A stretch of 47,929 bases of DNA from Verrucomicrobiota bacterium. Lineage in GTDB: Bacteria; Verrucomicrobiota; Verrucomicrobiia; Methylacidiphilales; JBCBYL01. Under the pieces are notes generated by a model. The model saw only the letters and a list, made by a program, of their open reading frames with translations, was not told where the DNA came from and made no database searches. The DNA lies in NCBI GenBank assembly GCA_039815855.1, contig JBCBYL010000002.1:1-47929 (forward strand), given 5' to 3'. Of this stretch, positions 12,009 to 47,929 are shown in pieces; position 1 is the first letter of the stretch, and each line of letters begins with the position of its first letter. Position numbers and translations under genes: made by a program.

Positions 12009-12050
12009 CCTAAGCGATTCCACCCGCTACCTGCACGAATTACCAATCCC

Positions 12051-17588: not shown

Positions 17589-18389
17589 TTAAGCTGTGAT
17601 CGTCGCAATTTCTGCTTCGGCCTGCTGGTCCGCTTGAGCTGCTGCGAGCGCCTTAGACCATGAACCGAAAAAGCGTGGCTTACAAGCTGCCGCAAAGAGA
17701 GCCGGCGCTTCCTGGCGCACATCACTACTTTGCATGCGAACACCTTGATCACGGAGTTCACGGATTCCTGAAACGATGTCTTCTTTCGTCCAGCGACGGC
17801 GGCGGCGAATTGAAGCGTAGTCGATACCTGCTTTTTCTACTGCGGTTCCCCAGCTCCCGAAACGGCGCCTCGCTGTTGCGATCAGTGGGTTTGCTGTCTC
17901 ATCCATTGTTTTGGAGCTGATATCCGCGCCTTCTTGTTTCAAGCGGCGAATCTCATCCAGGATGGTTTGATCATCCCATGACCGGTAACGATAAATTTCT
18001 TCTGGAGCTAAACCGGCTGAGGTCAAAGCAGACTTCCATGACCCAAAATGCTTTGGTCGAATCGCCGCGTGGACCATTGAATTGTATTTGCTCAGCATCA
18101 TCGAGCGGAAAGAAAGATCTACTCCTTGCTCGTGAAGCTTCTGAATGGTTCCGATGATACGATCCTTGGTCCAATCGTTATACTTACGAACGTCGTCGTA
18201 ATCAATCCCAGCTGCGGTTACTGCCGTTTTCCAACTTCCGTGGTAACGGATGCCTGCTGCGAGCAGTTCCTGAAAGTTCTTGCGAACGTAGTGTGAATAC
18301 AGGGGCTTTCCTTCTTCATTCCACTGACGAATTTCATCTAATACATCAGAGGATGACCATTTTCTATTCTTGCGTGTGCGTTGAATCAT
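17589..18389 (-). CDS. Protein made of four tandem homing-endonuclease-associated (HNH_repeat-like) repeats, with no nuclease domain
   Basis: 266 aa. It has four units of about 60-65 aa with the pattern W(S/T)x(D/E)xI(L/I)xxIRxLxxxG...(F/H)GSWxxAxxxAG(I/L). Confidence 0.6.
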   Translation of the reverse strand: MIQRTRKNRKWSSSDVLDEIRQWNEEGKPLYSHYVRKNFQELLAAGIRYHGSWKTAVTAAGIDYDDVRKYNDWTKDRIIGTIQKLHEQGVDLSFRSMMLSKYNSMVHAAIRPKHFGSWKSALTSAGLAPEEIYRYRSWDDQTILDEIRRLKQEGADISSKTMDETANPLIATARRRFGSWGTAVEKAGIDYASIRRRRRWTKEDIVSGIRELRDQGVRMQSSDVRQEAPALFAAACKPRFFGSWSKALAAAQADQQAEAEIATITA

Positions 18390-22780: not shown

Positions 22781-24325
22781 ATGAGAATAAAACTTTCTGC
22801 CATTTTCTATGTCCTGAGCGCAATTGGATGCGTCACGCTCACTGCAGCCACTAAGCCGAATATTGTCTTTCTTTACGTCGATGACTGGGCCTGGTCCGGG
22901 ACACCGATCGCCATGGATGAAGTCCATGAGAATTCACGCATGCCTATCCTCCAGATGCCCAACCTGACCAAGATGGCTGAACAAGGGATGAAGTTCCGCA
23001 ATGCTTACGGAGGACCTCAATGTGCACCGGCGCGGGTGAGCATCCAGACAGGGCAATCGGCTCCCCGTAGTGGCTACACCCTCGTCCTAGGAAAAATCAA
23101 GGACGACTACTACGATATGCGTAAGCAGTGGTCTGGCCTGCCTCTCATCCCGAATGTTTCAGACACCTCTATCAAACCAGATGCCGTCACCATCCCTGAA
23201 GTGCTCAAACCATTAGGCTATGCCAGTGCCCACGTTGGCAAATGGCACATGTATTCCGATCCCGGTGCGGAGGGTTATATCGTCCATGATGGAGACACGA
23301 CCAACACCCCTGGAAACACAATTAAAAGCGGAGGAAAGCAAATCCCAGCTGACATGACCGACCCGAAACTCATGTTCAGTATGGCGGAAAAAGCCCTCGG
23401 TTTTATTGAAGACCAGGCGAAGGCGAATAAACCGTTCTACCTGCAAATGTCTTATTATTCCATGCACGCTGGATCCGAGTGTCTTCCCGCCACCCGTGAA
23501 AAATATGCCAACATGCCCGAGGTAAAAGCCTACTACGAGCGCACCGGACAGGACCCAAATAAACTCAACCGGAAAAGTGATCCGGCGGTCTGGTTTGGCA
23601 TGGGGGAAGACATGGACACCACCTTTGGCATGATCCTCGATAAACTCGAAGCACTCGGCATCGCCGAGAACACCTACGTCGTCATGGCCGCAGATAATGG
23701 GTATCGCCACAAGGAACTCCTCGTCACCGAAGGCATGACCCAGCCCCTACACGCACATAAGTGGTGGGCCTGGGACGGCGGTATCCGCGTTCCAATGATC
23801 GTCACCGGGCCAGGCATCCCGGCCGGAACCACCTTCGAGGGGAATGTGGTCAATTACGATTTCCTTCCGACCTTCTTCGAATGGGCCGGCGGTGATCCAG
23901 AGACGTTGGAGAATATCGATGGGATCAGCCTGGCGGGTTATATGGCTGGGGAAAAGCCCGATGAAACCTTTTTAAAGCGCCCCCTCTATTTCCACGTTCC
24001 GCATTACCGCTCTGAGATCCCTCATTCCGCGATCATTTCCGGCAACCAAAAAGTCATGCACTTCTATGATTCTCCTGACACCCCCATGCTTTTTGATCTT
24101 TCTCAGGACCCGGGAGAAGTGGAGAACATCGCTACCGTTCAGCCTGAAGACCACCAAGCGCTTTTAGGACAAATGATGTCTTATTTTGAAGAAGTCGGAG
24201 CCCGGATCCCGAAAAAGAATCCTGATTTCGATCCTGAAAAATACAAAAGTAACCCCAGTTACAAAAAATATATCGCCTGGGGCGCTTTCGAAGGAAGCCG
24301 CCCTCTGGCCGATGACGAAAAATAA
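22781..24325 (+). CDS. Sulfatase (Cys-type, formylglycine-dependent)
   Basis: 514 aa with a signal peptide, [10 protein letters not shown], the active-site motif [12 protein letters not shown] (C-x-P-x-R), and GKWH. Confidence 0.9.
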
Positions 24326-24379
24326 TTCAGCACAAAGATCCCCTCCCCCCAGTTGGCCTCGCCGCCTGCCCTGCGTTTG

Positions 24380-25213
24380 ATGAAAATAAAATTCCTACTC
24401 CTTATCCCCTTTTTACTGAGTTCCTGTGGCTACTTTAAGTACCAGGAAGTCGAGAGCGTCAAAAAAGCCGAACTCCAGAGCCCGGATAAGGTCATCCAGT
24501 ATTCCACCTATGCCGGCTTGATCGAAAGACTCTTCGATGGCTTTGTCACCATCGACACCGTGCTTTGCCAGGGGAACCACGGTATCGGCACCACCGATTG
24601 CCTCCACGGTGAACTCATCATCATGGATGGCATCCCCTATCGGGTCACTTACGATGGAGTCGTCGAAATCGTAGGCAAAGAGGAAACCACCCCGTATGTC
24701 ACTCTCGCCAATGTCGATCCCGATCAAGCGGTCCTCATTACCTTACCCGCCGGAACCACCGTCCAGGAACTCACTGCCAAAGTCGCTGAACTCGCTGCCG
24801 ATCAATTTCAGAAAAATTTTCCTTATGCCATCCGGTTGGAAGGCAAATTCGCCTCGGCCCGGATGCGCAGTATCCCTAAGTTAGAGAAACCTTTTATTTC
24901 TCTAGCTGATGTCGCGAAGAACCAGAGCATCTTTACCTTTGAAAACGAGTCTCTTTCCATTATCGGATTCTGGAATCCCTCTTATGCAGAGGATTTGAAT
25001 CCACCCCAGTGGCATATCCATGGTCTCAACGCCGCCCGCACCTCTGGCGGCCATGTCCTCGACTTCACCACTGCCGAGGACGTGCAGGTCTCCCTTTGGA
25101 AGCTGATCGGCTTTGATGTCAATCTGCCAGACTCCACGGAATTTGCCGAGGCCGACTTTTCCCAGGACCTCAGCGCTCAGATCCAAAAAGTCAATCGAGA
25201 CAAAGAAGACTAA
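24380..25213 (+). CDS. budA: Alpha-acetolactate decarboxylase family protein with lipoprotein signal
   Basis: It has YSTYAGLIERLFDGFVTIDTVL.QGNHGIGTTDCLHGELIIMDG, WHIHG and GGHVLDF. The N-terminus from ATG 24380 is MKIKFLLLIPFLLSSCG (lipobox LSSC). The ORF is open from a TTG at 24353. Confidence 0.8.
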   Translation: MKIKFLLLIPFLLSSCGYFKYQEVESVKKAELQSPDKVIQYSTYAGLIERLFDGFVTIDTVLCQGNHGIGTTDCLHGELIIMDGIPYRVTYDGVVEIVGKEETTPYVTLANVDPDQAVLITLPAGTTVQELTAKVAELAADQFQKNFPYAIRLEGKFASARMRSIPKLEKPFISLADVAKNQSIFTFENESLSIIGFWNPSYAEDLNPPQWHIHGLNAARTSGGHVLDFTTAEDVQVSLWKLIGFDVNLPDSTEFAEADFSQDLSAQIQKVNRDKED

Positions 25214-25224
25214 GACGCGCATCA

Positions 25225-25525
25225 TTCCGCCCGTCATTGCGCCTGCCACGGCGAAGCTCTAAGCGAAGACGGGAGAGCATAGCGACGCGGTAATCCAGAC
25301 CGTTTGACGTAGAGGGGCCAAGCCTGTCCGCACTCTCAAGCCATTGCGGATGGATTGCTTCACTCTGTTCGCAATGACCAGGAGTGGTGAATTCGTCTGT
25401 TGTCATTGCGAGCGTTAGCGAAGCAATCCAGACCGTATGACGTAGAGGGACCAAGCCTGTCCGCACTCGCACTCCCACGCACGCAGATTGCTTTCCCCCT
25501 TCTTCATTCTAAATTCCTACTTCCC
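25225..25525 (+). repeat. Composite GC-rich hairpin repeat element, copy 3 (short variant)
   Basis: It has the same modules as copies 1 and 2. The apical 47 nt of the long hairpin are replaced by 6 nt. The module atccagaccgtNtgacgtagagggNccaagcctgtccgcactc is present twice (25303-25345 and 25427-25469). The TC-rich tail includes ttcttcattctaaattcc (25500-25517). Confidence 0.8.
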
Positions 25526-25628
25526 CCCTTAAATATATCTCTATTTTTATTATTGCCCCTTAAGCGTTTGTTATTATATTGTATTTACATCGTCATTATT
25601 TTCTTTCTTTCATTAGCAAACGAAATGA

Positions 25629-26375
25629 ATGACACCCATCACTATGAGACATCTTAAGCAGAACCAATTTTCAGTTAAGGGAAATAGAGGGAAAAGAGGG
25701 AAAACATGCTATCTCCACTCTCAGGGTGGATTTTCCCTGCTCGAATTGCTTGTCGTCGTCGGAATCATCGCCCTCTTATCGACCGCCTCCATCGTGGGGT
25801 TAAGGTCGGTTGCCAGTAGCCGGGCGGTGCAAGATACGGCCAGCGGCATCGCAGGAACCGTTGAATTAGCCCGCAGTATCGCCATGTCACAGAATACCTA
25901 CGTCTGGCTGGGCATTGAACAGGTAAACAACCTGACCAACCAACCAACCGATGTCGTCGTGAGTTTAGTCCGGTCCATCGATGGCACAGCAGACCTGACC
26001 GCAGCCAATCTTAGACCTGTCAATAAGCTTCAGCGTTATTCCAACGTCCAACTTGCCGACTTCTCCTCCAGCCCACCACCCGCCAGTGGCCCGATGTCGG
26101 CCCGCTCAACCAGCCAAAGTCTAATGACCTCAGGCAGTAGCACAGCTATTTTCAACTGGCCCCCCACCGGCGGAACCCCTCTTCACATCTTCAACAATGT
26201 CCTGCGTTTCGGGCCTGACGGTTCGGTGCTTTTAGAAGGACTCACCTCCTACGCCATGATCGAGGTCGGATTACAGGAGGCGAATACGCCCGCTGTTACC
26301 GATGTCAGTGTTGGCAATATTGCTGCTGTGCAAGTCGATGGCGTCACCGGTAGGAGCCGGATCTTCCTGCCATGA
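25629..26375 (+). CDS. Prepilin-type N-terminal cleavage/methylation domain protein, GspH/FimT-like (Verru_Chthon cassette-like)
   Basis: 248 aa. The class III signal is ...HSQGG/FSLLELLVVVGIIALL with Glu at +5. The following SRAVQDTASGIAGTVELARSIA resembles GspH/FimT. An alternative start is the ATG at 25644. Confidence 0.75.
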   Translation: MTPITMRHLKQNQFSVKGNRGKRGKTCYLHSQGGFSLLELLVVVGIIALLSTASIVGLRSVASSRAVQDTASGIAGTVELARSIAMSQNTYVWLGIEQVNNLTNQPTDVVVSLVRSIDGTADLTAANLRPVNKLQRYSNVQLADFSSSPPPASGPMSARSTSQSLMTSGSSTAIFNWPPTGGTPLHIFNNVLRFGPDGSVLLEGLTSYAMIEVGLQEANTPAVTDVSVGNIAAVQVDGVTGRSRIFLP

Positions 26376-26926
26376 GACATGGGACAAAACCATCCGGATT
26401 CTCGCTCGTCGAAGTCGTCGTTGCCCTGGGTTTATGCACCTTCTGCCTGACCGTCCTCCTTGCCCTTCTTCCCACTGGGATCGATGCTAAGAAGGAGTCG
26501 GTGGAGTTGACCCAGGCCGCCAGCCTTGCCGCTGAGGTGGTCGCTGATATGCAAGCGGAGATCGACTATCTACGGGCAGCACAAAGCAACCCTAGTCCAC
26601 CTTCCGAAGGGGTAGCAAACGTTTCCCGATTCGGCTTTGCCAGACAGAACGCATCAAATTCCCCCTCTCTGTTAAATCCGGCCTCTTCCTTTTTTATTGG
26701 CCCCGGCGGGCAGCATAAGACCTCAGTGGACAGATCTATCGGTTCTGCCTCCCAATACCGGGTCGATGTCGGATTCGATCCCAGTACGAATAACAACAGC
26801 ATCAATGCGACCGCCGTCCGTATCGTTATCAGCTGGCCCGCGCAGGCACTCGGCACCACAGGCAGTTGGCCGACTGACCTTGATAACTCCTTTGAACTCA
26901 TGACCTACCTGGATTTTTCCCTATGA
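26372..26926 (+). CDS. Prepilin-type N-terminal cleavage/methylation domain protein (minor pseudopilin-like)
   Basis: 184 aa starting MRHGTKPSG/FSLVEVVVALGL with Glu at +5. An ATGA overlap joins it to the upstream gene. Confidence 0.75.
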   Translation: MRHGTKPSGFSLVEVVVALGLCTFCLTVLLALLPTGIDAKKESVELTQAASLAAEVVADMQAEIDYLRAAQSNPSPPSEGVANVSRFGFARQNASNSPSLLNPASSFFIGPGGQHKTSVDRSIGSASQYRVDVGFDPSTNNNSINATAVRIVISWPAQALGTTGSWPTDLDNSFELMTYLDFSL

Positions 26927-28005
26927 GAATGAAGAACAGAGAACGCGGATTTTCCCTCATTGAGATGATTGCCGCCATCTCCGTCTTTACCATCATCTCC
27001 CTCATGATGGTGAGCATGGTGGACGGTGTTACTGGCGCCGTGAGGGCCTCCAATAAAACCTTGGACATGGATAGTGAGGCCCGGCTCATCTTTGGCCTCA
27101 TCCAACGTGATTTAGATCAAATCGTCAGTTCCGGCGCAGCCGATCTGCAAACAATTAAGAAGCCCGATAATGACATCTTCTATTTCTTTACTGAATCACC
27201 CGCTTTTAACGATTTTAATCAGCAGGACACTGGAAAATACTCTGTTGTCGGCTACCGCACTTCTACGAAAAAGAATGACCCCCTCTCCCTTCAACTGGAA
27301 CGCTTTGGGATCGGTCTCGCCTGGGATAGCAATGCTTCTAATGGAGCAAATAGCAATACAGGACCCGATCAGATGGTTTTCACCAGTTACAATCCTACTG
27401 ATGGGACAGTGAGACCTGAAGTGCAGATCAGACCCGAAGGACAATTAGATTCTCAGTCTCGTTGGAATGCTATAATAAATGATGGGATAGCGGCTGAGGA
27501 TTCTCCTTTTTTCTCTGTCATTGGCCCCCAGCTCATCCGCTTTGAATATTGCTTTCTCCTCAAGGATGGATCTTATTCTAATTTTCCGGTGATCGGCCCT
27601 GATCCTAACAACCCACCAACTACCAATGGCAATGACCCCGATAATGGAACAAGCGGAAATGTAGGAGATCGCTTGTTTAATTTGGATACAGGTCGTGCTT
27701 TTGCCTGCACCGCTGTCAACTTGGGGACTGGTAACCGCACTTGGCTTCATCACGGGCTCAATGATGTGGCCGCCATTGTCTTCACCATCGTCCTCATGGA
27801 TGAACGCTCACGCTTGATCGCGGGCGATACCAACCTGCTCGTTTCACGATTTCTGGATCTGGATAATACCGAATTACAAGCTAGTCTTCCCTTAGAAACC
27901 TGGTCTGACGAGATCAATGATCCTAACTTCGCCACCATCGCCGGAATTCCCCTGGAAGCCGCGCAGAATCTCAAAGTCTATCAACGTTTCCTCTACCTCG
28001 ATTAA
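26923..28005 (+). CDS. Prepilin-type N-terminal cleavage/methylation domain protein (GspJ/PilW-sized minor pseudopilin-like)
   Basis: 360 aa starting MRMKNRERG/FSLIEMIAAISVF with Glu at +5. An ATGA overlap joins it to the upstream gene. Confidence 0.75.
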   Translation: MRMKNRERGFSLIEMIAAISVFTIISLMMVSMVDGVTGAVRASNKTLDMDSEARLIFGLIQRDLDQIVSSGAADLQTIKKPDNDIFYFFTESPAFNDFNQQDTGKYSVVGYRTSTKKNDPLSLQLERFGIGLAWDSNASNGANSNTGPDQMVFTSYNPTDGTVRPEVQIRPEGQLDSQSRWNAIINDGIAAEDSPFFSVIGPQLIRFEYCFLLKDGSYSNFPVIGPDPNNPPTTNGNDPDNGTSGNVGDRLFNLDTGRAFACTAVNLGTGNRTWLHHGLNDVAAIVFTIVLMDERSRLIAGDTNLLVSRFLDLDNTELQASLPLETWSDEINDPNFATIAGIPLEAAQNLKVYQRFLYLD

Positions 28006-28007
28006 CC

Positions 28008-31000
28008 ATGTCTATGAAATTCAAAGACCTTAGAACCTCTCAATCCTCACGGCGCGGAGCCGCTCTGATCATTGTTCTGGCCATGATCGTCCTCCTCTCT
28101 GGACTGATCCTGGCCTTCTTCTCCCGCAGCCTCCTCCAGATGCAAATCTCATCGAGTAGCTCCAATCAGGTTAAAGTCGACCAATTTACGCAGGGAGCGC
28201 TTCAACAGGTCATCGGTGATTTCATCGCAGAAATTCAAGATCCAGCCAATAACACCGACCAATCTCCCTACCCTGCTCCAAATGGCGGACGAACTATTTA
28301 CATCCCTAGGAATCCCGAAAACGCGGTTCCTCAGCTCTCTGGGGTGACACTTGCGGATGTTTACAATCCAACACAGCCAACAGGTTTGGAAAATCTCCTG
28401 AAGGTCAGTCGCTCGAATGTGGAATTTTACCCATCCGGTCCAAACCGGGCCGCAGCCGCATCGACCGCCACCCCATCCCTCAATGGCCGCCTCTTCACTC
28501 CAGAACGTTGGAATAAGCCCCTCCTCATGCAGGCCACTTCACTTAGCGACCTTACTCCGGCGGGAAATTTCCCAACTCCGGACTGGATCCTCGTCGCGCG
28601 GGATGGAAGCAACCCGACCACCCTTGCCGCAGCCCAGTGGACTAATAACGGTGCCTCCAGCCAGACCGTGGTCGGACGCTATGCCTTCACCGTTTATAAT
28701 GAAGGCGGCCTTCTCGATGCCAATGTCGCCGGCTTTGATTCGACTGCAGTCGCTAACTTTGGAACGGTGACCAATCCCAGCCAATATAAGAGCAGTGTCG
28801 CTTACGCAGATGTAAGTCAAATTTTTGAGCAGGGTGGAGCATCTCCGTCAAACGCTGATAATCTGGTAGATCAATTGGTCCAGTGGCGAAATGCAGCCAC
28901 GCTCTCGGCAAGTGACCCTTCAGAAAGCTTCTTCCAATGGGCCACCTATAACCCGTTCGGCTTTCTCAGACCGGCCAATCAGCAGCTGTCCGGAACCCAG
29001 AGCGACCGCCAATTCGTCAGCCGCCAGCAACTCATCGAATTCTTTGATGATCGGCTCAACGCCAGCAGCGATAACGCGGTCCTCGATGCCCTCCAATACC
29101 TCGGCACCTACAGCCGGACCCTCAACCAGCCCTCTTTCTACCGTATGCAGGGGCTGGATAGCAGTTTGCCAAACCATGATCCGGGAGTGGGACTTATACA
29201 AACCTACAACGCTGGCCAAACTGCGGGCTGGAATTCAAATTACGGAAATTCAGCGGCGACATTTGATGCCGTAATCAACCCCATTCTCGCTTCAATTACT
29301 GCGGCCACTGCCGGGACACGTCTTGATGGCACCCCTTTTCAAGCACAGGAACCCTTATTGAAAAAACGTTTTCCGCTCAATCGCCTGGCTTGGGTGACCT
29401 ACAAAGGGCCCAGTGCGTCCCTGCCGCCTGGTGATCCACTTATGGTCGCCTTACGAGATGAAGGAATCACTCAAGATTTTCTTGATCGTGGGACCGCACA
29501 AGCCGTTCAAGATGCTTTCGGACTGATTTGGAGTGGCAATAGTGGTGGCCCTAACGGAGTCGCGGGCTATTGGCTTTATGACAACCAACAAGCTCATGCT
29601 TCGCCGGCCGGCTCCAACCCAATCAACCTGCTCAACAACCCAATGACTCCAGCCAACGGAGTCGACAACCAGGGAAGAGAACCCGACTTCTTTGAACTAC
29701 TAAGAGCAACCATCAATGCCGGGGCACTCGGTCGCACCTTGACAACGGCAAATGTGGGCGGCTCCAGCGCATCTACCTCTTATACCAATGACATTGCCCG
29801 CCGTATCAACAACCAGATTATTCAGGTTGGCGCCAATATCATAGATCAATTCGATCCGGACAATTTTCCCACTCGGATTGTTTTTGCCGATGTAAATCTC
29901 CAATCTGCAGGTCGGACCTGGTCATTCTGGGGGGTTGAAGATCTGCCGTATTGGCTTGGTGCCACCGTCGCCAGTGTTGTGATTACTCAACCTGATCCTA
30001 TTCCTAACATGGGAAATATGAACGTTACACAAAATGCGGCTAATCCGGTGCGCAACGTTGCTGGTGGAACGAATCCACTGAGTTACCCTGATCAGACAGG
30101 TGAGGGGATTGCCCTTATGATTCCCTATCTCTGGAATCCGCATGACACTCCCAGTTCACCATTTTCGGACACGTCACCTCTCTCCCCCCAGGAGCTTCGT
30201 ATCTGTGTCAGCACCAACAACCAGGGCCACTGGAGTAGTATTGGCTCTTTCACGGGGACTGGAGTCAGAATGTTTTCTAGAGATCCCGACAATGGAAATG
30301 ATGGCGTGCAAAATCTGGCGGGGAGCTTGGTCTCAAATCCCACCCCCACGGATGGGCCCGAATTTGAAACCAACTGGGATGATGCCAGCTTCATCAGCCA
30401 GAATTCGAATACGGGTGTTTTTGATTTTGCCAGTGATAACCCGACGGCCCTTTATTTCTATCGAAATAATGACAATCCTGCGGATTCAGGCCATGAAGTT
30501 TTCCGAAATCCGACTCCCCTACTCAAACTCGATAATGCCTCTAATCCCGGAACATCAAGGGAGCATACTGGCCTTCATTTGGAAAATTCTAACCTGATTG
30601 TAACGGAAGGCGGTCAAACCGCTGATAACGGAGTGGTAGAGGCTGTCACCGGAGAGCGTTTCGCCGGTTTCTACATGGGAGGCCCCTATCCACTGCGTTT
30701 TAATAGAGAAAACTATTTATTTGATCCTGGCGATCCTTCAGCTATCCCCCCCGTTCCTGAAGATAGGGACACTGCGACCCATACTGTTTTTCAATTTCAG
30801 ACAAACGGAGGATGGAACCGAGGCTTCACTTTCTCTCTGGAATATGCTGACCCAGACAATCCGGGCAATTGGATTATCTACAAACAAATCTTCACTGTTT
30901 ATAATCCTGTCATTGCCTCTGGTACTGGTAATAATGGTATGCCCATTCCCTCCAGAGTTGTGCCTGGAGCAAACCCTGTCATGGCGCGGCCACTGCTTGA

Positions 31001-32087
31001 GGGCCTGAAAACAGCTTCCACCGTCGGCGTAAGGCGCATTGGCATTATGGCATTTGATCCTCGCACCATGAGCTTTGTTTCCAGGCAAAGGAATGAGCTG
31101 CCAGCGTGGATTACAACCACCGAGTCAGGTAATACACTCCCTCCCGGGCTTCAAACTGAGACGATGTCGCCTAGTAATACCTCTGGTGGTAATAAAGGTG
31201 TCTCACTGGCAAAAGATTACTTTTATTTAGACGACGGTTATGTACGGGATAGCGACAATGTGCTTCGTCGGCCCATGGGTGGGTTTGTACCTGATATCAC
31301 TGCCAGAAATGCTTCCACTACAGTTGGTCTCCCAGAAGCCACGATTGATCAGGCGGACGAAGCATTGAATCGGCCTATCATGTTGAACCGGCCTTTCCGC
31401 AATGTGGGAGAGCTAGGACATGTCTTTATCGATAGCCCGTGGAAAAATATTGATTTTTCCTCGCCTGAAAGCGGTTGGACTGGCCTCCTCGATGTCTTCT
31501 GTATTACTGAGGATATCACTCCAAATGGCTTGGCCGCTGGTAAGGTTGACCTCAATACCCGCCAAGCTCCCGTGCTGACGGCGATACTTGTGAATGCTTA
31601 TCGTGATGCCCAAAATGACCCTCCGGCTTTGGTTGATCCGATAACAGAGCAAGAAGCTCTCGGCCTATCGCAAGCCTTGGTGGCTCGAACAAACGCCGTC
31701 AGTAGCGCTAGCCCAGGCCAAGGCCCATTGATACAGGTCGGAGATCTTGTAGGACGGTACGCCACTGGCGCCGATTCGGGGTCGGCTAATGCGGATCCTT
31801 ACAGCGGGTTCAGCCTAGATCTGACTTTATCCGGAACGCCCGACGCCCCTAGTAATGTTGTGCAGCGATTGCGTGAATCTCCTATCCGAGCACTTTCTAG
31901 TGCTGGTCAGGCAGGCACCTGGAATCTCATGATTGACCTCGTCACCCAAACCGGCAAGTATCCTGTCAACGCACGTGATTTAAATGACTTTACGGTCGAG
32001 GCAGAGCGTCGAGTATGGCTTCATGTGGCTATCGATCGCCTCACCGGGGAAATCATTGATCAGCAAATCGAGGTAGTCTCAGAATGA
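28008..32087 (+). CDS. Giant GspK/PilX-like pseudopilin-related protein (Verru_Chthon cassette protein A-like)
   Basis: 1359 aa. The N-terminus SRRG/AALIIVLAMIVLLSGLILAFF lacks Glu at +5, as in GspK. The C-terminal region has RPFRNVGELGHVF and KVDLNTRQAPVLTAIL, which resembles the GspK NxNTA...L signature. It starts 2 nt after the upstream stop. Confidence 0.7.
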   Translation: MSMKFKDLRTSQSSRRGAALIIVLAMIVLLSGLILAFFSRSLLQMQISSSSSNQVKVDQFTQGALQQVIGDFIAEIQDPANNTDQSPYPAPNGGRTIYIPRNPENAVPQLSGVTLADVYNPTQPTGLENLLKVSRSNVEFYPSGPNRAAAASTATPSLNGRLFTPERWNKPLLMQATSLSDLTPAGNFPTPDWILVARDGSNPTTLAAAQWTNNGASSQTVVGRYAFTVYNEGGLLDANVAGFDSTAVANFGTVTNPSQYKSSVAYADVSQIFEQGGASPSNADNLVDQLVQWRNAATLSASDPSESFFQWATYNPFGFLRPANQQLSGTQSDRQFVSRQQLIEFFDDRLNASSDNAVLDALQYLGTYSRTLNQPSFYRMQGLDSSLPNHDPGVGLIQTYNAGQTAGWNSNYGNSAATFDAVINPILASITAATAGTRLDGTPFQAQEPLLKKRFPLNRLAWVTYKGPSASLPPGDPLMVALRDEGITQDFLDRGTAQAVQDAFGLIWSGNSGGPNGVAGYWLYDNQQAHASPAGSNPINLLNNPMTPANGVDNQGREPDFFELLRATINAGALGRTLTTANVGGSSASTSYTNDIARRINNQIIQVGANIIDQFDPDNFPTRIVFADVNLQSAGRTWSFWGVEDLPYWLGATVASVVITQPDPIPNMGNMNVTQNAANPVRNVAGGTNPLSYPDQTGEGIALMIPYLWNPHDTPSSPFSDTSPLSPQELRICVSTNNQGHWSSIGSFTGTGVRMFSRDPDNGNDGVQNLAGSLVSNPTPTDGPEFETNWDDASFISQNSNTGVFDFASDNPTALYFYRNNDNPADSGHEVFRNPTPLLKLDNASNPGTSREHTGLHLENSNLIVTEGGQTADNGVVEAVTGERFAGFYMGGPYPLRFNRENYLFDPGDPSAIPPVPEDRDTATHTVFQFQTNGGWNRGFTFSLEYADPDNPGNWIIYKQIFTVYNPVIASGTGNNGMPIPSRVVPGANPVMARPLLEGLKTASTVGVRRIGIMAFDPRTMSFVSRQRNELPAWITTTESGNTLPPGLQTETMSPSNTSGGNKGVSLAKDYFYLDDGYVRDSDNVLRRPMGGFVPDITARNASTTVGLPEATIDQADEALNRPIMLNRPFRNVGELGHVFIDSPWKNIDFSSPESGWTGLLDVFCITEDITPNGLAAGKVDLNTRQAPVLTAILVNAYRDAQNDPPALVDPITEQEALGLSQALVARTNAVSSASPGQGPLIQVGDLVGRYATGADSGSANADPYSGFSLDLTLSGTPDAPSNVVQRLRESPIRALSSAGQAGTWNLMIDLVTQTGKYPVNARDLNDFTVEAERRVWLHVAIDRLTGEIIDQQIEVVSE

Positions 32088-32836
32088 TAAAATATATCCC
32101 CATTATTCTCATTACTTCCCTTATGATTTCAACATGTGGGGCTCTGGCTCAGGAAAAATCTGAGGGCCTTCAAAAACCACCACTTCCCAAAGGGCCAATC
32201 GTGCGAAAAATCAGTGATAATGAGGCGTGGCGAATATCGATTGGTAGCTTGAGTTCCGAAGAAAAGACTTACTCCAATTTGATGGAATACATGATCAATG
32301 GCAGGGGAAATGAAGGGAAAAGAGAAGTATTCTTACGCCGTGTTAAGCCTGTCTGGCATATCAGTATGAAAGGACAGGAGAAGACGTACGAAATATGGTC
32401 CGATGGCTACCAAATGATCGATAAGGATTCAACTAAGGAAAAATTCGGACTGCTCGACTTTGGTTCTAACAATGTTGATGAAGAGGGAATCACCGAGGAA
32501 GAACTCTACAATGAACCATCAATCGTTGGTGAGATAGCAAATAGCATAAGCGGCGATGAATTCCCCGGCTTCCGGGGGCTCAAACCCAAACACTATCAGG
32601 GCGTCGAGGAGTTCAATGGACAACTGTTTCAAATCTTTCAACGAGGAAGTGTCACGCTATGGGTATTCCCGAAAACTAAGGAGCCAATAGCTTGGAACCA
32701 AGGTAATGAAGTGCGTGTTTTTAAGAGGGTCAATGCTTCTGGCAAAATAAAAATACCCCAGGACATCAAGGCCATTTTTGAGAAGTTTAAGAAAGACCGT
32801 GACGTTCTATTTGTTCCCCCTGCTTACGGTGGCTAG
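32084..32836 (+). CDS. Secreted hypothetical protein, translationally coupled to the cassette
   Basis: 250 aa with signal peptide MIKYIPIILITSLMISTCGALAQ. An ATGA overlap joins it to the giant gene. It is visibly more AT-rich than its neighbours. Confidence 0.6.
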   Translation: MIKYIPIILITSLMISTCGALAQEKSEGLQKPPLPKGPIVRKISDNEAWRISIGSLSSEEKTYSNLMEYMINGRGNEGKREVFLRRVKPVWHISMKGQEKTYEIWSDGYQMIDKDSTKEKFGLLDFGSNNVDEEGITEEELYNEPSIVGEIANSISGDEFPGFRGLKPKHYQGVEEFNGQLFQIFQRGSVTLWVFPKTKEPIAWNQGNEVRVFKRVNASGKIKIPQDIKAIFEKFKKDRDVLFVPPAYGG

Positions 32837-33006: not shown

Positions 33007-34476
33007 GTGCAAGTCACTCATCACCTCCTAGAGAAGGCAATCATTTATATCACCTTGCTGCGGCGAGGCGTTTTGGCGAGGATCAGTCAGGGGTTGTTGG
33101 TCTTTCTTCTAGGGCTTTCTTCGCTTGCTTTAGCGGAGGACCAGCCTCCCAATATCATTTTCTTCCTCACGGATGATCAGCGGGATGATGTCCTCGGCTG
33201 TTACGGGAACGAACTGGCGAAAACCCCCACCATCGACGACCTTGCCTCAGAAGGAATCCGCTTCGAAAATTCCTTCTGTCAGGTCCCGATCTGCGCTGCG
33301 AACCGCGCCACCATTCTTTCCGGACTATCCCAGCGGACCCACGGACACAACTTTGGCAAACCACCGGTCCCCTCTGAATACATCGCCAGTAGTTACCCGA
33401 AGGTGCTCAAAGAGGCTGGCTACCGCATCGGCTTTGCTGGGAAATATGGAATGAAATTCGCCGACCCGGGGCTTCAGCAGGAATTCGATTTTTTTAAGAA
33501 GATTGACCGCAATCCTTATATCAAAAAACTGAAAGACGGCACCCGGCGCCATGAGACGGATCTCTGTGCTGATGCGACGATCGAATTCATTCAATCCAAC
33601 CCAGAAGGCAAACCATTCTGCATGTCCGTCAGTTTTAACGCCACCCATGCGGAGGACGGTGATAAACGACCGGGCTACCACTTCCAATGGCCGGAATCCG
33701 CCGACGGTCTATTTGACGATATCACCATGCCGGAGCCCTATCAGGCAGATGAGAAATTCTACCAAGCGCTTCCCTCCTTTCTCCAAAACCCTAAGGAACT
33801 CAATCGTCAGCGTTTCTTTTGGCGCTGGGACACTCCTAAAAAATACCAGACCAACATGCGAGCCTATTTCCGACTGGCGAACGGGATTGACCAGGCTATC
33901 GCACGCGTCATCGAAGCGCTCCAAGCCAAAGGGCTCAGTGAGAACACCATTATTATCTACACCGGCGATAACGGGCTTATGATGGGAGACCGTGGTCTGG
34001 CCGGTAAATGGAATCCCTATGAGCAGTCCCTGCGGGTTCCATTAATCATTTATGACCCACGCCTCCCGGAGGCCCTGCGCGGCCAAGTGCTCCCTCACCT
34101 CGCCAACAGCGTCGATCTGGCGCCAACTATGGTGGACTACGCCGGGGTCAATCTACCCGAAGTTTATCAGGGACGCTCTCTCTTGCCCATGATCCGGGGG
34201 CAGCGGATTGCCTGGCGTGAAGACATTTTCTGCCAGCACCACTTTAAACGATTTAACGATTGGCATGCGGTGCGCGACCAGCGCTACAAATACGCGGTTT
34301 ACTATGATCAGCCCTATGAAGCCCTCTTTGACCTTCAGGAAGATCCAGGCGAACTGATCAACCTCGCTGACAACCCTCACTACGCAGACATCCTGAAGCA
34401 GAAAAAAGAACGGCTCCAGGATTACCTCTCCCGTTTCCCAAAGGCTCCAGAGAAGAAACCCAAGAATAAGAAATAG
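33007..34476 (+). CDS. Sulfatase (Cys-type)
   Basis: 489-aa ORF from a GTG. It has PNIIFFLTDDQRDD and the active-site motif CAANRATILSG (C-x-A-x-R). The true start may be a downstream TTG, for example 33073, just before the signal peptide. Confidence 0.88.
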   Translation: MQVTHHLLEKAIIYITLLRRGVLARISQGLLVFLLGLSSLALAEDQPPNIIFFLTDDQRDDVLGCYGNELAKTPTIDDLASEGIRFENSFCQVPICAANRATILSGLSQRTHGHNFGKPPVPSEYIASSYPKVLKEAGYRIGFAGKYGMKFADPGLQQEFDFFKKIDRNPYIKKLKDGTRRHETDLCADATIEFIQSNPEGKPFCMSVSFNATHAEDGDKRPGYHFQWPESADGLFDDITMPEPYQADEKFYQALPSFLQNPKELNRQRFFWRWDTPKKYQTNMRAYFRLANGIDQAIARVIEALQAKGLSENTIIIYTGDNGLMMGDRGLAGKWNPYEQSLRVPLIIYDPRLPEALRGQVLPHLANSVDLAPTMVDYAGVNLPEVYQGRSLLPMIRGQRIAWREDIFCQHHFKRFNDWHAVRDQRYKYAVYYDQPYEALFDLQEDPGELINLADNPHYADILKQKKERLQDYLSRFPKAPEKKPKNKK

Positions 34477-34479
34477 GGT

Positions 34480-35919
34480 ATGTTCATACGATTACACTAC
34501 GCGCTACTTGCTAGTCTAGTCTGCTATGGCTCTCTGGCTGTAGGAAATGAGAGGCCTAATATCCTGTTTATCTCGGCAGATGACTTGAATGACGTTCCGA
34601 CCTTCATGGGGACCTATGAGGGGGCGATTACGCCGAATATGGATCGCTTGGCTGCCAGTGGAGTCGCTTTCCTGAATGCTCATGTGCAATACCCGATCTG
34701 TGGGCCGTCGAGGGCATCCATTATGTCCGGCATTTTGCCGACGACGCTTGGGTATGCAACGCATCCCAATGATAATGCGGTCCAAGAGCGTGCCCAGGAG
34801 TTAGGGGGCGATACGATTCCGAATTACTTTAAGCAAAGTGGCTACAAGGTGATGGGCGTCGGTAAGCTGTTCCATAAGCACTTACCTGAGGGCACTTTTA
34901 CGGAAAGTGGCACACGGGGTGGTGGCTTTGGCGGATTTGGTGGCTCCTACAGCAAACATAAACGCAATTACCCGTATCCCGGGACCGGCACCGATTGGGG
35001 AGTGACCGATACACCGGATAAACCCATGCCGGATGAAAAGAATGCGGATTGGGTGATTCAGCGTCTGCAACAACAACACGATGCACCCTTTCTACTCATG
35101 CTCGGGCTGCTTCGACCGCATGTACCCTGGATTGTCCGGCAGGAGTATTTCGATCGCTATCCGGAGCCGGAAAAAATCCAGATGATGCCTTACAAGGCAG
35201 ACGATTTGGATGATGTTCCTGAGATCAGCCGAAGGCTAAACATCCACTCAGCAATGCCGCAGACAGACTGGTTGATTCGGACAGGTAAATGGAATTTCAT
35301 GATGCATGCCTACTTGGCATCGACGACGTTCATTGATGATCAAATTGGCCGGGTGCTGGATGCTTTGGAGGCGAGCCCCTATGCCAATAATACCATCGTC
35401 GTTTTCTGGTCGGACCACGGTTATCATTTGGGTGAAAAGGGGACGACCCAGAAACACAGCCTCTGGCAGCGTTCGTCGCGGGTGCCATTCATCATCGCAG
35501 GTCCGGGGATCAAGCCGGCCCTATCGAAGCGGGCGGTGGGACTCATCGATCTGTTCCCCACTCTGGTAGAGTTGTGCGGCATCGAACCCCTTGACGCCTG
35601 GGAAGGCCGTAGTCTGGTTCCTCTACTGGAAGACCCGGATAAGCCGTGGGATCATCCAGTCATCACCTCTTGGGCTGGGAGTAATTATGCTGTGCAGACT
35701 GAGCGGTATCGATATATCCGTTACACGGACGGCTCGGAAGAACTCTACGACCACGAGAAAGACCCGCATGAATGGAAAAATTTGAGCGCGCTATCTGAAT
35801 ACGATTCTCTGAAGCAGACGCTTTCAAAAGGCATTCCCACCGTGGATAACTCTAGTCCAACGCATGTGAAATCAATGATCGGAAGCATAAATCGCTACAG
35901 AGATCGTGTGTTGGAGTAA
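34480..35919 (+). CDS. Sulfatase (Cys-type)
   Basis: 479 aa with a signal peptide, NILFISADDLND, and the active-site motif CGPSRASIMSG. It starts 3 nt after the previous sulfatase gene. Confidence 0.9.
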   Translation: MFIRLHYALLASLVCYGSLAVGNERPNILFISADDLNDVPTFMGTYEGAITPNMDRLAASGVAFLNAHVQYPICGPSRASIMSGILPTTLGYATHPNDNAVQERAQELGGDTIPNYFKQSGYKVMGVGKLFHKHLPEGTFTESGTRGGGFGGFGGSYSKHKRNYPYPGTGTDWGVTDTPDKPMPDEKNADWVIQRLQQQHDAPFLLMLGLLRPHVPWIVRQEYFDRYPEPEKIQMMPYKADDLDDVPEISRRLNIHSAMPQTDWLIRTGKWNFMMHAYLASTTFIDDQIGRVLDALEASPYANNTIVVFWSDHGYHLGEKGTTQKHSLWQRSSRVPFIIAGPGIKPALSKRAVGLIDLFPTLVELCGIEPLDAWEGRSLVPLLEDPDKPWDHPVITSWAGSNYAVQTERYRYIRYTDGSEELYDHEKDPHEWKNLSALSEYDSLKQTLSKGIPTVDNSSPTHVKSMIGSINRYRDRVLE

Positions 35920-36156: not shown

Positions 36157-39100
36157 GTGAAAATTCCAACGGTAGTTGTTTTGTTCGTTTTACATGTGCT
36201 GTCCACGATCGGGTGGGCCCAGATCTCGATACGGGCGAATGATACCAGCAATACATCCACGAAGGAGTTTTTTTACCATTGGGATGGTTTCGAGTTTCAG
36301 TGGCATGGGCCAGGAATCGACTTTGTTAAAAGCGGTGACCTGTCCGGATTCCCGGCGAGCGGGAGCAGCTTTAGCCAGCCGTATTCGGGAAATGGTTTTG
36401 CCTATATCATGTCCTCGGTATCCAACTGGGATACCGGCCTGGCCGCGGCCGCTGTGGCGTCCTCCTCTGGACTCCCTCCAGAATCATCACCCTTTATCGC
36501 CTACCTGAATAGCTTAACGTTTGGAACGGTCAATCGACACGGCGGCAATCAATACGGGTTCGGCGTCGATAATGGAGACGCACGAGTCAGTCCGGAAGCC
36601 CGCGAAGATAAGATCGATGTACCCGGTGAGGCGCTGGTGATTTCTTTCGACCTCCAAGGTCAGCTAGACGTAGGTTCTGCAAGCGGATCATTTGGACCCG
36701 AATCTTCTGCTTCGTTCGAGAATATGGGGCTTCACGAGAACGCTCGGTTAATACTCAAGGAACTGGTTATTCGCCCCTGGGCGGCGGGTGTGACCGGGGA
36801 AATCGATTATCTTTTTTACGATGCCAGCGAGGGTACCTTTTTAAAAAATAGCGCGGGTGTCTCAGCCTTTCGCGAATACGTCGATATGCGCACGACAGGT
36901 TCAGTTCTTCAGGGCCCCTGGACGATTGAGCATGGGGATATCCTCATTATCGCGCATCCCACCGATACGACGAAAAACCTCAACCTGATTTCATCCGAAC
37001 TCTGGAGTATGACCTTCGACCTGGAGTTTGACGCACCTACCCCTGCTCCCTTAGACGTTCCCAGCGATCCAGCGGACTTTCCCCAACACCAATACGCGCC
37101 CGGTTTTTCCAACATCTGGCGGACCGATGGAGAATTACTGGCCATGTATCGCACAGAGCCTGGCAACTCCAGCATCCGGACTGTGGTTCAGGACTTTCAC
37201 CGTGGATATCTCCTGACCGAAAACCGGGGATCGACTATTGGTAATAGCCACATCTTTTTCGACCTCACCGATGTCACTTCCGAAAACCCCAGTGTCCCCC
37301 TTCCCGAGGACCGGATACTCACGGAGGCTTTGAAAGTTCCCAACAGGGGGAATATGCACACGGCCTACTCACTCTTGCCGGACTACCGGGTGAATCATCC
37401 CGGAGACAATTACGTAGATTTAGCTGGTCTATCCAACAGCACGCCGAGCATTGCCACGGTCGGCAGACCTCCGGGCTTCTCCGGAGCGGATGGGGGTGCC
37501 CGCAGCGCCTATATTCTCCCGTACCACTACGATTCGCAAGGCAATGGAAAAAGAATCGTGGATGCGCGCACGGGGCAGACGCTCTCTACCTTCGATGAAT
37601 ACGGCTTTGGCAGCGGAACCCTTCCGGTTCCTGTCGGGAACATCCTCCTACTAGCCAAAATTCGCGCCGGTGAACGTGCCATCGCCAGCTATGACATCAG
37701 CGATCCTGCAAACCCGGTACTGCTCGATGTGATGCGAGACTCGGATCCTCGCTGGCGGCATCAGGAAGGTGGAGCTTATGAGCCAGCCATTTACAATAAC
37801 TACTTTGTTGTCCCCCTATCGCTCCGCGGCGGCACCATCGGGTTTGTCGACTACACGGATCCGGGAAACCTACGCATGCACCACATCATCAGCGGCACCA
37901 GGGGTGCTCAGCGCTACATGCAATTTCAGGATCACCGGATGTTTGCCGGGACCGAAGTCATTGATCTCACCCACCTTAACGGAGGCATCACCCCGACGGA
38001 GCACAACTTCCCGGGTCATAAAGGCGAATATATGCTCCCCCTCGGAAATCTGGTGGTTTGCGCTGAGAATTCAGAACAGGGCGGTGACAATCTCGGTGCC
38101 ATTTACGCCTTCCAGGCCGAGCCCGATGTCCGTCCTCCTTCGGTCACCTATCATGTTCCCGCCGCCGACGCGACGGACCAGCTGGTAACAAGTCGCATCG
38201 GAATGGTGATTCACGAGACGCTGGACGCCACCACGATTGATGAAACCACCTTCCGTGTTTTTCCGGTTAGCGATACCACTGAAACCAGCATTCCGGGCAC
38301 CCGGGTGTGGAGTGATAAGGATATTCTCACCTTTACCCCCATGTCTCCGCTTGAACCCGAGACGACCTATCGCGTCGTGGTTGAGGGCTTCACCGACATC
38401 GTCAGCAATCCCATTGGGCGCTATAGCTTTAACTTCACCACGGCCGGTCCGGATTCACTCTTCTACCCCACGGTTACACAAGCCGGCATAACGACCGCGG
38501 AACTAATCGTCGACACGCCCATTGAGTTCTTCCTCAATGCCACCCCGGATGGGGGACAAAACGCCGATACCCTCGAATATAGCTGGGACTTTGGAGATGG
38601 TACCGTGACGGATTGGAGCAACGCAAACCAGACCATCAGTCACGCCTATCAATATCCTGGTAAGTTTGCGGTCCGGGCCCGTGTGCGCAGCGTCAATGCG
38701 CCCGAGCGGGTGGCCATGCGCTATCTACAGCCTTCGGTGTTCTTCAAGGCGGCAGGTGAAGATGGTTTCGAGCCTCGCTTTGAAGCTGAAAGAGGAACGT
38801 TGACCGGTCCCAATAGCGGGATTTTTACCTCAACGGATTCGTCTGGTGGGATGTATGTCGTGGGCGGACCGAATTCCGGGCTTTATTGGGACTTTGATAG
38901 TGTCGGCGGCGCTTTTGATTTTCAATTCCTCATCGCCATGCCGGAAGGAACATCCGTTCCGGGCAATCAAAGTACCTGGTGGCGAATGGGTGTCTACGTG
39001 AGCGAGATTGTCGATGGGGTTGAAACCAACGAGGTTTTCCTTGGGGAGATTGAAACGCGTAGTCTCACCTATGAATACAAGGGCACCTCGGCCTATCTTC

Positions 39101-47312: not shown

Positions 47313-47929
47313 CTATTTCTTCTTTTTGCCTGACTTCGAGCCCCGGTAGGGTTTCAAGGTTTCGTTGAGTTGCTTGGCGATCTCCAGCGACTTGTTCTGG
47401 CGGATCAGATTCGCCCGTTCCTCAGGATCGTTGGTGTGATCGTAAAGCTCCCATTGGTCGAGTGATTCTCCGTAACGGGTGAATCGATACTGCTCTGTCC
47501 GGATGGAATAACCGACATTGTTCTGGCCAATTGCTGGTCGTGCCCAGGCCGCCTTTGGATTCTCCATCAAGGGGCGCAGTGATGCGCCTTCAAGTTTGCT
47601 TTGGGGCGTCAATCCTGCCAGATCGGTCACCGTAGGGTAGATGTCCAAGAGCTCGACCACGCGCTCACAGTCCCCTGGGGCCATTCCCGGAGCAGCGATG
47701 ATCAGCGGTGAACGAAAGGCCGTTTCGTAGTTCTTGAACTTATACCAGAGGGCTTTTTCTCCGATGAAATAACCATGATCGGACCAGAAGACGATAATCG
47801 TTTTGTCCATGAGACCATTGTCCTCTAGTGCATCGAGCATCAAGCCCACTTGAGCATCAAGAAATGTAATGGACGCAAAGTAGGCCTGCCGCAAACGACG
47901 GATATGCTCGATGGGCATGTCTTTGATAT
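47313..47929 (-). CDS. Sulfatase, C-terminal part (5' end lies beyond the window)
   Basis: The reading frame is open to the window edge. IIVFWSDHGYFIGEKALW, DIYPTVTDLAGL and ELYDHTNDPEE are typical of the sulfatase C-terminal half. The tail is Lys-rich. Confidence 0.85.
   Translation of the reverse strand, partial: IKDMPIEHIRRLRQAYFASITFLDAQVGLMLDALEDNGLMDKTIIVFWSDHGYFIGEKALWYKFKNYETAFRSPLIIAAPGMAPGDCERVVELLDIYPTVTDLAGLTPQSKLEGASLRPLMENPKAAWARPAIGQNNVGYSIRTEQYRFTRYGESLDQWELYDHTNDPEERANLIRQNKSLEIAKQLNETLKPYRGSKSGKKKK

Follow-up and report, generated by a model that had tools for sequence, protein, structure and literature searches.

An orphan minor-pseudopilin-like cassette with a giant GspK-like subunit and a predicted LolA-like fifth protein in Verrucomicrobiota

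Minor pseudopilins prime the assembly of the pseudopilus and cap it. Verrucomicrobiota are major degraders of sulfated algal and mucin glycans, and the ways in which they export their enzymes and capture their substrates are poorly understood; to our knowledge, they lack the SusC/D-type systems of the Bacteroidota Sus paradigm. Both minor-pseudopilin tip modules and a set of uncharacterised TIGRFAM cassettes, the Verru_Chthon cassette proteins A to D, were already on record. Here we describe a five-gene cassette in a 47,929-nucleotide stretch of a Verrucomicrobiota genome (the window: contig JBCBYL010000002.1 of assembly GCA_039815855.1, positions 1 to 47,929), which encodes three prepilin-type proteins, a GspK-like protein of 1359 residues and an exported protein. 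The cassette is probably an accessory, orphan priming or tip module for a type II secretion-type filament, and one of several paralogous sets expected in each cell.

Several described systems invite comparison. In Myxococcus xanthus, one type IVa pilus machine works with alternative minor-pilin/PilY1 sets (clusters 1-3), and the periplasmic protein TfcP, itself encoded in a cluster, assists the large tip protein PilY1 as an accessory factor (PMC7541494, PMC8833165). In the Akkermansiaceae, the MUL2 locus (Amuc_1098-1102) has been proposed to encode a type IV-like pilus for the attachment or uptake of mucin or fucose-rich sulfated glycans; MUL2 is reported to be less conserved in Chthoniobacterales and absent from Methylacidiphilales, and glycans accumulate in the periplasm of Verrucomicrobiota (PMC13174399). 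V. alginivorum over-expresses a pseudopilin on alginate and carries, in an alginate-induced cluster, a PulG-like pseudopilin gene that has 67 paralogues (PMC13274419), while a planctomycete up-regulates a type II secretion system on fucoidan (PMC11685898). Our literature search found no paper that mentions a "Verru_Chthon cassette" or describes these cassettes.

An earlier reading of the window from its letters alone (the sequence-only reading) had proposed five + strand open reading frames (ORFs), and their coordinates and sizes proved exact:

25629-26375, + strand: gene 1 (P1), 248 residues, GspH-like minor pseudopilin, cassette-D-like
26372-26926, + strand: gene 2 (P2), 184 residues, GspI/PilV-like minor pseudopilin, cassette-B-like
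26923-28005, + strand: gene 3 (P3), 360 residues, GspJ-like minor pseudopilin, cassette-C-like
28008-32087, + strand: gene 4 (P4), 1359 residues, giant GspK-like subunit
32084-32836, + strand: gene 5 (P5), 250 residues, exported, predicted LolA/RseB fold, translationally coupled to P4

The N-termini QGG/FSLLELLVVVGIIALL of P1, PSG/FSLVEVVVALGL of P2 and ERG/FSLIEMIAAISVF of P3 carry the prepilin motifs QGG/FSLLE, PSG/FSLVE and ERG/FSLIE, each with Glu at +5, and in all three a hydrophobic helix follows the Gly-1/Phe+1/Glu+5 motif. P4 begins RRG/AALIIVLAMIVLL (RRG/AALIIVL) and has Ile rather than Glu at this position. Start and stop codons overlap as ATGA at ...CCATGAGAC (P1/P2), ...CTATGAGAA (P2/P3) and ...GAATGATAA (P4/P5), and the P3/P4 junction, GATTAACCATG, consists of TAA, 2 nucleotides (CC) and ATG. 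All of these features can be read directly in the sequence, as can the class III N-termini, the three overlaps and the 2-nucleotide gap on which the earlier reading had built.

The first three proteins score as pilin-like, with a ranking of models that follows the H-I-J-K order. Pfam N_methyl exceeded its gathering score of 21.2 bits in P1 (25.9 bits) and P3 (27.0 bits) and fell below it in P2 (19.1 bits), and TIGR02532 was above its own NCBIfam cut-off for P1 and P3. The best NCBIfam model for P1 was cassette D (TIGR02596; 31.7 bits over residues 35-185, cut-off 70), followed by GspH (29.8 bits, cut-off 80). For P2 it was cassette B (TIGR02598; 39.6 bits, cut-off 51.4), followed by PilV, XpsI and GspI, the last at 16.9 bits (cut-off 44.35), and for P3 it was GspJ (28.7 bits, cut-off 64.85), with cassette C (TIGR02599; 17.2 bits, cut-off 256.5) next among weak pilin-family matches. 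The NCBIfam matches of P2, P3 and P4 are confined to the N-terminal helix, P1 being the exception. When 20 members each of the gene 1, gene 2 and gene 3 families were pooled and scanned, cassette D was matched by 20 members, B by 20 and C by 19, as one would expect of models that each recognise their own gene family; secondary matches were to GspH (18), PilV (13) and GspJ (10). The family profiles of genes 1 and 3 match Protein Data Bank (PDB) chains only at the N-terminal pilin helix, and that of gene 2 gave no pilin match among PDB chains. The Glu+5 prepilin motif of genes 1-3 is kept in about 38 loci. Because N_methyl lies above its gathering score in P1 and P3 and the five-gene layout recurs in dozens of independent loci, the cassette is not a chance arrangement.

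P4 gave its best NCBIfam matches to cassette A (TIGR02600; 22.0 bits, cut-off 332.3) and GspK (21.9 bits, cut-off 130), both on residues 16-72. At the level of sequence profiles, homology of its N-terminus to GspK is established by an hhalign comparison of the P4 family profile with a 45-member GspK profile, in which residues 12-79 matched GspK 3-70 with a probability of 93.8% (E 1.7e-7). The 45-member profile was needed for this result, as the match to the single E. coli GspK reached a probability of only 43%. Near the other end of P4, residues 1127-1196 (RPFRNVGELG...VFCI...GKVDLNTRQAPVLTAIL) align with SELR...VCvLP...INvNTa of GspK, at a local E of 7.5e-5 and a probability of only 62%. From these alignments we read P4 as a putative GspK-type subunit with ~1000 residues inserted between the N-terminal helix and the helix-hairpin-helix core. 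Together with the order of the NCBIfam matches, the hhalign result bears out the view that genes 1-4 form an H-I-J-K-type minor-pseudopilin set with a giant K-like subunit. The parts of P4 that matter here are:

28041-28244, + strand: P4 residues 12-79, GspK-type N-terminal helix (hhalign and NCBIfam)
29958-31157, + strand: P4 residues 651-1050, variable, indel-rich and strand-rich region, candidate specificity domain (conservation, paralogue identity and model)
31386-31595, + strand: P4 residues 1127-1196, GspK-like helix-hairpin-helix/NxNT core (hhalign)

Residues 1-650 and 1051-1359 are the conserved parts of P4, with column conservation of 0.45-0.73, compared with 0.17-0.40 in residues 651-1050. 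An alignment of 51 K-family sequences has 61 invariant residues, many of them Trp, Arg, Asp and Gly, and one of 30 sequences has 93. Residues 160-1359 gave a good AlphaFold model, with a predicted template-modelling score (pTM) of 0.85 and a mean predicted local distance difference test score (pLDDT) of 76.6. In it, helical parts occur along with several regions rich in strands, the C-terminal region is helical and three long strands lie at the terminus; the region 651-1050 contains long β strands. A sequence-profile search with the P4 family found no match among PDB chains.

The sequence-only reading had pointed to the Verru_Chthon cassettes, and as a lead this was good, since the best cassette models fall in the order D-B-C-A along genes 1-4. 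Membership in those families was considered and rejected, all scores lying far under the curated cut-offs (A 22 against 332.3, B 39.6 against 51.4, C 17.2 against 256.5 and D 31.7 against 70). In the scans that it had proposed with the cassette models and Pfam, N_methyl passed its gathering score in P1 and P3; T2SSK was not detected in P4 by Pfam, and no cassette cut-off was reached. Of 36 K-family members scanned, none approached the 332 bits required for cassette A; the lowest E value was 1.9e-9, over the N-terminus only. Judged by these scores, the window's cassette belongs to a sister family of the TIGRFAM cassettes and is not a member of them, in agreement with the name "hypothetical protein" that NCBI gives to the K homologues.

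This family is large. The K proteins amount to at least 598 protein clusters of ~1250-1450 residues, with 444 matches in contigs representing one genome per species, and almost all come from Chthoniobacterales, Terrimicrobiaceae, Methylacidiphilales and Verrucomicrobiales. A few loci (L006/L007, L055 and L064) lie in metagenome-assembled genomes (MAGs) labelled Blastochloridaceae, Pyrinomonadaceae or Bryobacteraceae, for which mis-binning, mislabelling or rare transfer are possible. Several copies per genome are usual: at least six loci lie on CP170506.1, the complete genome of Chthoniobacteraceae SH-KS-3, and many MAGs hold two or three.

One of the CP170506.1 loci, L038, connects the family to a secretion machine. 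There, a secretin, a T2SSE ATPase, a T2SSF platform protein, an ORF with no assigned function and GspG are followed immediately by a full-length cassette, namely genes 1-3 and a K of 1327 residues. The secretin has a GspD N0 domain and repeated Secretin_N domains, and a full-length alignment of the GspG with that of E. coli gives 36% identity (E 3e-23). Machinery is absent from the vicinity of at least five more cassettes on this chromosome (L025, L030, L032, L037 and L039). Elsewhere, GspF lies beside the cassette in L050 and L052, and a GspE-like ATPase in L071 and L075. The L038 operon and these other linked loci indicate that the H-I-J-K genes of an operon of the type II secretion type come from this family, most copies, including that in the window, being orphans. 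The earlier reading of genes 1-4 as a minor-pseudopilin set served by a machine encoded elsewhere in the genome finds its strongest support in this arrangement, in which a paralogous cassette sits directly 3' of gspD-E-F-(ORF)-G in a complete Chthoniobacteraceae genome that also holds at least five orphan copies. Divergence among the CP170506.1 paralogues extends over the whole cassette, with identities of 37-42% in genes 1-3 and, in the K proteins, of 48% in the N-terminal, 28% in the middle and 51% in the C-terminal part.

Some loci depart from the common layout. Between gspF and gspG of L038, an ORF of ~370-414 residues (L038:5647-6891, + strand) is a possible GspC/L/M analogue; it is not matched by Pfam, and none of the 77 other loci among the 78 compared has a homologue. 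Directly after K, L038 has a Mutator-family transposase (L038:14278-15564, - strand), at the usual place of gene 5. L063:869-14229 holds two complete cassettes (genes 1-3 and K) head to tail, with gene 5 absent between them. In L011, L023 and L045, which are from Verrucomicrobiales MAGs, one protein of ~830-900 residues precedes K in place of recognisable genes 1-3; the pseudopilin genes may be fused or strongly diverged there, or the simple ORF caller may have produced an artefact. K is split into two adjacent ORFs of ~700 residues in L033, L046, L055 and L077 (K region ~10001-14100), which could be sequencing frameshifts or decaying copies.

The fifth gene had been noted as a coupled secreted protein; its coupling and export signal hold, and it proved in addition to be a conserved component of the cassette, with a predicted LolA-like fold, which that description had not recognised. 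P5 starts with a signal peptide, MIKYIPIILITSLMISTCGALA/QE, that aligns with the signal peptides of its relatives, and the family alignment backs the 250-residue start at the ATGA overlap. The public gene call (protein P0121) starts at Met14, giving 237 residues from which the signal peptide is lost. P5 gave no Pfam, NCBIfam or PDB sequence match. An exhaustive search of representative proteins found 77 homologues of 225-260 residues, where a word-indexed search had found only P5 itself. A homologue directly follows K in 45 of the 78 loci, 26 of these 45 with a 4-nucleotide overlap with K. The confident P5 model (pLDDT 85.2, pTM 0.78) retrieved RseB (E 4.4e-4), LolA (E 1.6e-3, template-modelling (TM) score 0.42), VioE, MucB and LolA-LolB in Foldseek, with probabilities of up to 1.0, yet with TM scores of only 0.3-0.42 and E values of 4e-4 to 2e-3. 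P5 is thus predicted, from its model, to have a LolA/RseB-like open β-barrel fold, a fold that typically shelters hydrophobic ligands. Of 60 orphan cassettes, 44 have gene 5 after K, and of five machinery-linked cassettes none has it; our own hypergeometric calculation gives p ~0.0025, a value that overstates the support, given that the five linked loci are not independent of one another.

The orphan state of the window's cassette was examined over all of its 47,929 bases. Pfam scans of the 24 other non-overlapping ORFs of at least 150 residues found no secretin, T2SSE/F, PilM-Q or prepilin peptidase. A six-frame regular-expression scan found exactly three prepilin motifs with Glu at +5, all of them accounted for by P1-P3, which means that no small ORF conceals a major pseudopilin. 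By the same scans, the cassette does not occupy the gsp-operon position after gspG within the 48 kb. The earlier statement that filament machinery is missing from this stretch is thereby upheld.

The loci in which these cassettes lie are rich in genes for glycan use. The flanking ORFs of the 78 loci were clustered and the top 20 clusters named with Pfam, which gave SSF sodium:solute symporters in 10 loci, LacI regulators in 10, sulfatases in 7, SASA esterases in 7, GH2 in 7, GFO/IDH/MocA oxidoreductases in 6 and GDSL esterases in 6, as well as GH3, GH30, CBM9, BD-FAE, MFS_2 sugar transporters and PA14. Of the 43 loci of at least 20 kb, 33 contain one or more glycan-use families, a lower bound, and two precomputed neighbourhoods agree with this setting. 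The commonest neighbours, in 19 loci, are large proteins with PATR repeats (β-strand repeats of autotransporter type) and a PEP-CTERM-like tail, VPEPSTWAL...RRRK, for example L032:5138-7336 (+ strand), L080:4918-7611, L069:782-7483 and L053:4258-7410; there are none in the window. We considered such a protein as a sixth cassette component and dropped it, as its position is not fixed and it lies immediately upstream on the same strand in only five loci. This neighbourhood may be a real functional link, with exosortase-sorted surface proteins, or mere abundance in these genomes.

How an orphan set of this kind might work can be outlined from its parts. A prepilin peptidase encoded elsewhere would process the four pilin-like proteins, and P1-P4 would assemble in the inner membrane as a staggered H-I-J-K complex with the 1359-residue K-like subunit as its cap. 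The complex would dock on a single shared GspD/E/F platform and prime polymerisation of the GspG pseudopilus, and the variable, strand-rich residues 651-1050 of K would be the specificity determinant. Since the cassettes sit in different glycan-utilisation loci, we favour the view that each would adapt one secretion machine to the enzymes or polysaccharide of its own locus, here the exported sulfatases. In what is the most speculative step, the LolA-like P5, made together with K, would most likely act as a periplasmic partner or chaperone that shields a hydrophobic element, which might be the lipid anchor of a cargo lipoprotein or, prior to assembly, the N-terminal helix of K. A bolder version, to which we give limited credence, is that every polysaccharide-utilisation locus provides the single type II secretion machine with its own exchangeable tip of H-I-J-K plus LolA-like protein, whose variable K domain would recognise the glycan or (lipo)protein enzymes of that locus and so decide on secretion or capture.

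Several points weigh against the accessory-module reading. The GspH, GspI, GspJ and GspK scores in NCBIfam all fall well short of the equivalog thresholds, and the matches hardly extend past the N-terminal helix; family profiles compared with PDB chains detected no sequence match between solved pseudopilins and the globular parts encoded by genes 1-3, and the middle and extreme C-terminus of P4 have no significant hhalign match to GspK. A Foldseek search of the P4 model placed XcpX, XcpX and GspK at ranks 1-3 of 350,542 PDB chains, but not significantly (E 0.4-0.8), although weak E values may be expected of a 1200-residue query with a huge insert. The search for machinery, prepilin peptidase and major pseudopilin was confined to the 48-kb window of the source genome. 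No LacI regulator adjoins the cassette in the window, and the association with glycan loci is without a background control in genomes where such genes abound in any case. For gene 5, the difference between orphan and linked cassettes is drawn from five linked loci, some of them close relatives of one another. Finally, the evidence does not separate cargo selection from glycan binding, a role that the sequence-only reading had suggested for K along with that of an adhesin.

The last point bears on the alternative that the cassette primes an extracellular fibre, built by a type IV pilus or type II secretion-like machine, and that K combines PilX/GspK with a PilY1-like adhesin, binding sulfated polysaccharide or a particle surface at the tip of a surface pilus instead of selecting cargo. 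The size of K (1359 residues) resembles that of PilY1-class tip proteins, its variable strand-rich middle is as expected for an adhesin, several homologues were named "Tfp pilus assembly protein PilX" by JGI, PilV is the second-best match of P2, and there are precedents in M. xanthus (PMC7541494, PMC8833165) and in Akkermansiaceae MUL2 (PMC13174399). However, the only complete machinery beside a family member, in L038, is of the GspD/GspG type, with no PilM/N/O/P/Q or PilT there; Pfam finds no PilY1/PilC β-propeller or von Willebrand factor A domain in P4; and the Foldseek matches to staphylococcal adhesins are weak (E ~2). We therefore regard a surface-pilus adhesin as rather unlikely. An envelope complex that works independently of any filament, in which inner-membrane-anchored pilin-like proteins and the LolA-like protein form a periplasmic scaffold for the uptake or retention of oligosaccharides ("selfish" uptake), would accommodate the many cassettes without nearby machinery, the sugar transporters (SSF, MFS_2) and periplasmic enzymes that adjoin cassettes, the periplasmic accumulation of glycans in Verrucomicrobiota (PMC13174399) and the restriction of the LolA-like component to orphan cassettes. 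It is nevertheless improbable, as the G/F-x-x-x-E motif is strictly kept in genes 1-3 over dozens of loci, which argues for prepilin-peptidase processing and filament-type assembly, and in one gsp operon the place of H-I-J-K is taken by a full-length paralogue. The least credible proposal, and a very improbable one, is that the cassette encodes ComG-like minor pilins of a competence pseudopilus that takes up DNA, or that it is a decaying duplicate without a present function. It can draw on weak NCBIfam matches to ComGD/E/F/G and on the split K of L033, L046, L055 and L077, but the ComG matches are weaker than those to the Gsp and cassette models and touch the N-terminal helix only, no competence genes lie nearby, the five ORFs of the window are intact, K-family residues are invariant by the dozen and the start/stop overlaps are conserved across loci.

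The surroundings of the cassette in the window are as follows:

25214-25628, + strand: upstream non-coding gap of 415 nucleotides, presumed promoter region, between an acetolactate-decarboxylase-like ORF (end 25213) and P1
32848-32877, no strand assigned: 10-base-pair AT-rich inverted repeat CGCTTTTTAA-(10 nucleotides)-TTAAAAAGCG, starting 12 nucleotides 3' of the P5 stop

A single sigma-70-like promoter site was found, at 25553-25580, and such sites were no commoner than in shuffled sequence; the terminator scan likewise gave nothing above shuffled expectation. No + strand T-run follows the inverted repeat, which is therefore not a canonical intrinsic terminator. The distance from P5 to the next sulfatase gene is ~170 nucleotides, across which the cassette and the downstream sulfatases might share one transcript. 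Sulfatases are encoded at 22781-24325, 33007-34476, 34480-35919, 42747-44189 and 47313-47918 (partial), and the ORFs on the left of the window match housekeeping families in Pfam (ribonucleotide reductase, DnaE, CCA-adding enzyme and others). The sequence-only reading had put the cassette at the edge of a sulfatase island: the sulfatase-rich stretch and its housekeeping left border are there, and the cassette lies just inside it, not strictly at its edge. We saw no signs of a mobile island in the window; the GC content stays level along the cassette, and neither tRNAs nor Rfam families were detected. Further ORFs identified with Pfam include acetolactate-decarboxylase-like, 3-keto-disaccharide hydrolase-like and Ser/Thr kinase proteins and a 1911-residue Big_5/PKD/cytochrome-c protein.

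Three of these neighbours deserve mention in their own right. The acetolactate-decarboxylase-family protein (AAL_decarboxy, E 1e-58; 24353-25213, + strand), between a sulfatase gene and the cassette, has an N-terminal lipoprotein-like signal, LLLIPFLLSSC; acetolactate decarboxylase is normally cytoplasmic, and an exported or lipidated form is unusual. The 1911-residue protein (36157-41892, + strand) joins Big_5, PKD and SMP-30/gluconolactonase-like domains to a C-terminal di-haem cytochrome c peroxidase/cytochrome c region and has sulfatase genes on either side. Among the housekeeping genes, a 266-residue protein (17589-18389, - strand) contains the homing-endonuclease-associated HNH_repeat domain, with no obvious mobile element around it.

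What is new here is a separate, unnamed family with a GspK-type subunit of four times the usual size and a variable insert, a LolA-fold (predicted) fifth gene confined to orphan copies, and placement in glycan loci. A large, phylum-wide family tied to the type II secretion pseudopilus leads to the testable idea of locus-specific tips on one machine. If true, specificity in secretion or glycan capture would be modular and encoded by each locus, an arrangement that has no described counterpart; if the tip idea is wrong, the gain in annotation remains, as these proteins can be named minor pseudopilin-like instead of hypothetical.

The Verru_Chthon cassettes are among the nearest known systems. 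Their D, B, C and A models (TIGR02596, TIGR02598, TIGR02599 and TIGR02600) are the best or near-best for genes 1-4, in that order; the A model has 1296 positions, near the length of P4, and both families share the phylum, the multi-copy habit and a function that is unassigned. Relatives of the window's cassette show the same four-gene layout, three small prepilin-type genes and one of ~1300 residues in several copies in Verrucomicrobiota, and differ by their conserved fifth gene. With the GspH-I-J-K set (GspIJK of enterotoxigenic E. coli, PDB 3CI0; XcpVWX of P. aeruginosa, PDB 5VTM), the cassette has in common the gene order, prepilin N-termini in the first three proteins, and a K that lacks Glu+5, has the GspK N-terminal helix and aligns, at lower probability, with the helix-hairpin-helix/NxNT core. 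However, the window's K is ~4 times longer (1359 against ~330 residues), with ~1000 inserted residues, the variable strand-rich region among them; the proteins in the H and J positions exceed their usual size as well (248 and 360 against ~170 and ~195 residues), a fifth, LolA-like gene is present, and the family has become detached from the machinery and multiplied in genomes. P5 shares with LolA, RseB and MucB a predicted fold and export to the periplasm, with no detectable sequence similarity and TM scores of 0.3-0.4, and its setting beside a GspK-like gene is unlike that in the Lol or sigma-E systems.

Several alternative four-pilin sets, a large tip protein and an accessory periplasmic protein are a likeness to the M. 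xanthus clusters. There, however, PilY1 is a separate non-pilin protein, whereas in the window the large protein is itself a K/PilX-type pilin, and Pfam detects no PilY1/PilC domain in any cassette protein; the M. xanthus accessory protein is a cytochrome c, that of the window is predicted to be LolA-like, and the machinery linked to the window's family is of the type II secretion type, not type IVa. MUL2 belongs to the same phylum and likewise ties a pilus-type system to glycan use. It differs in being single-copy and in having a secretin-type channel, PilM and an archaeal-type pilin in place of an H-I-J-K set, and it is the cassette described here, rather than MUL2, that is common in Chthoniobacterales and Methylacidiphilales.

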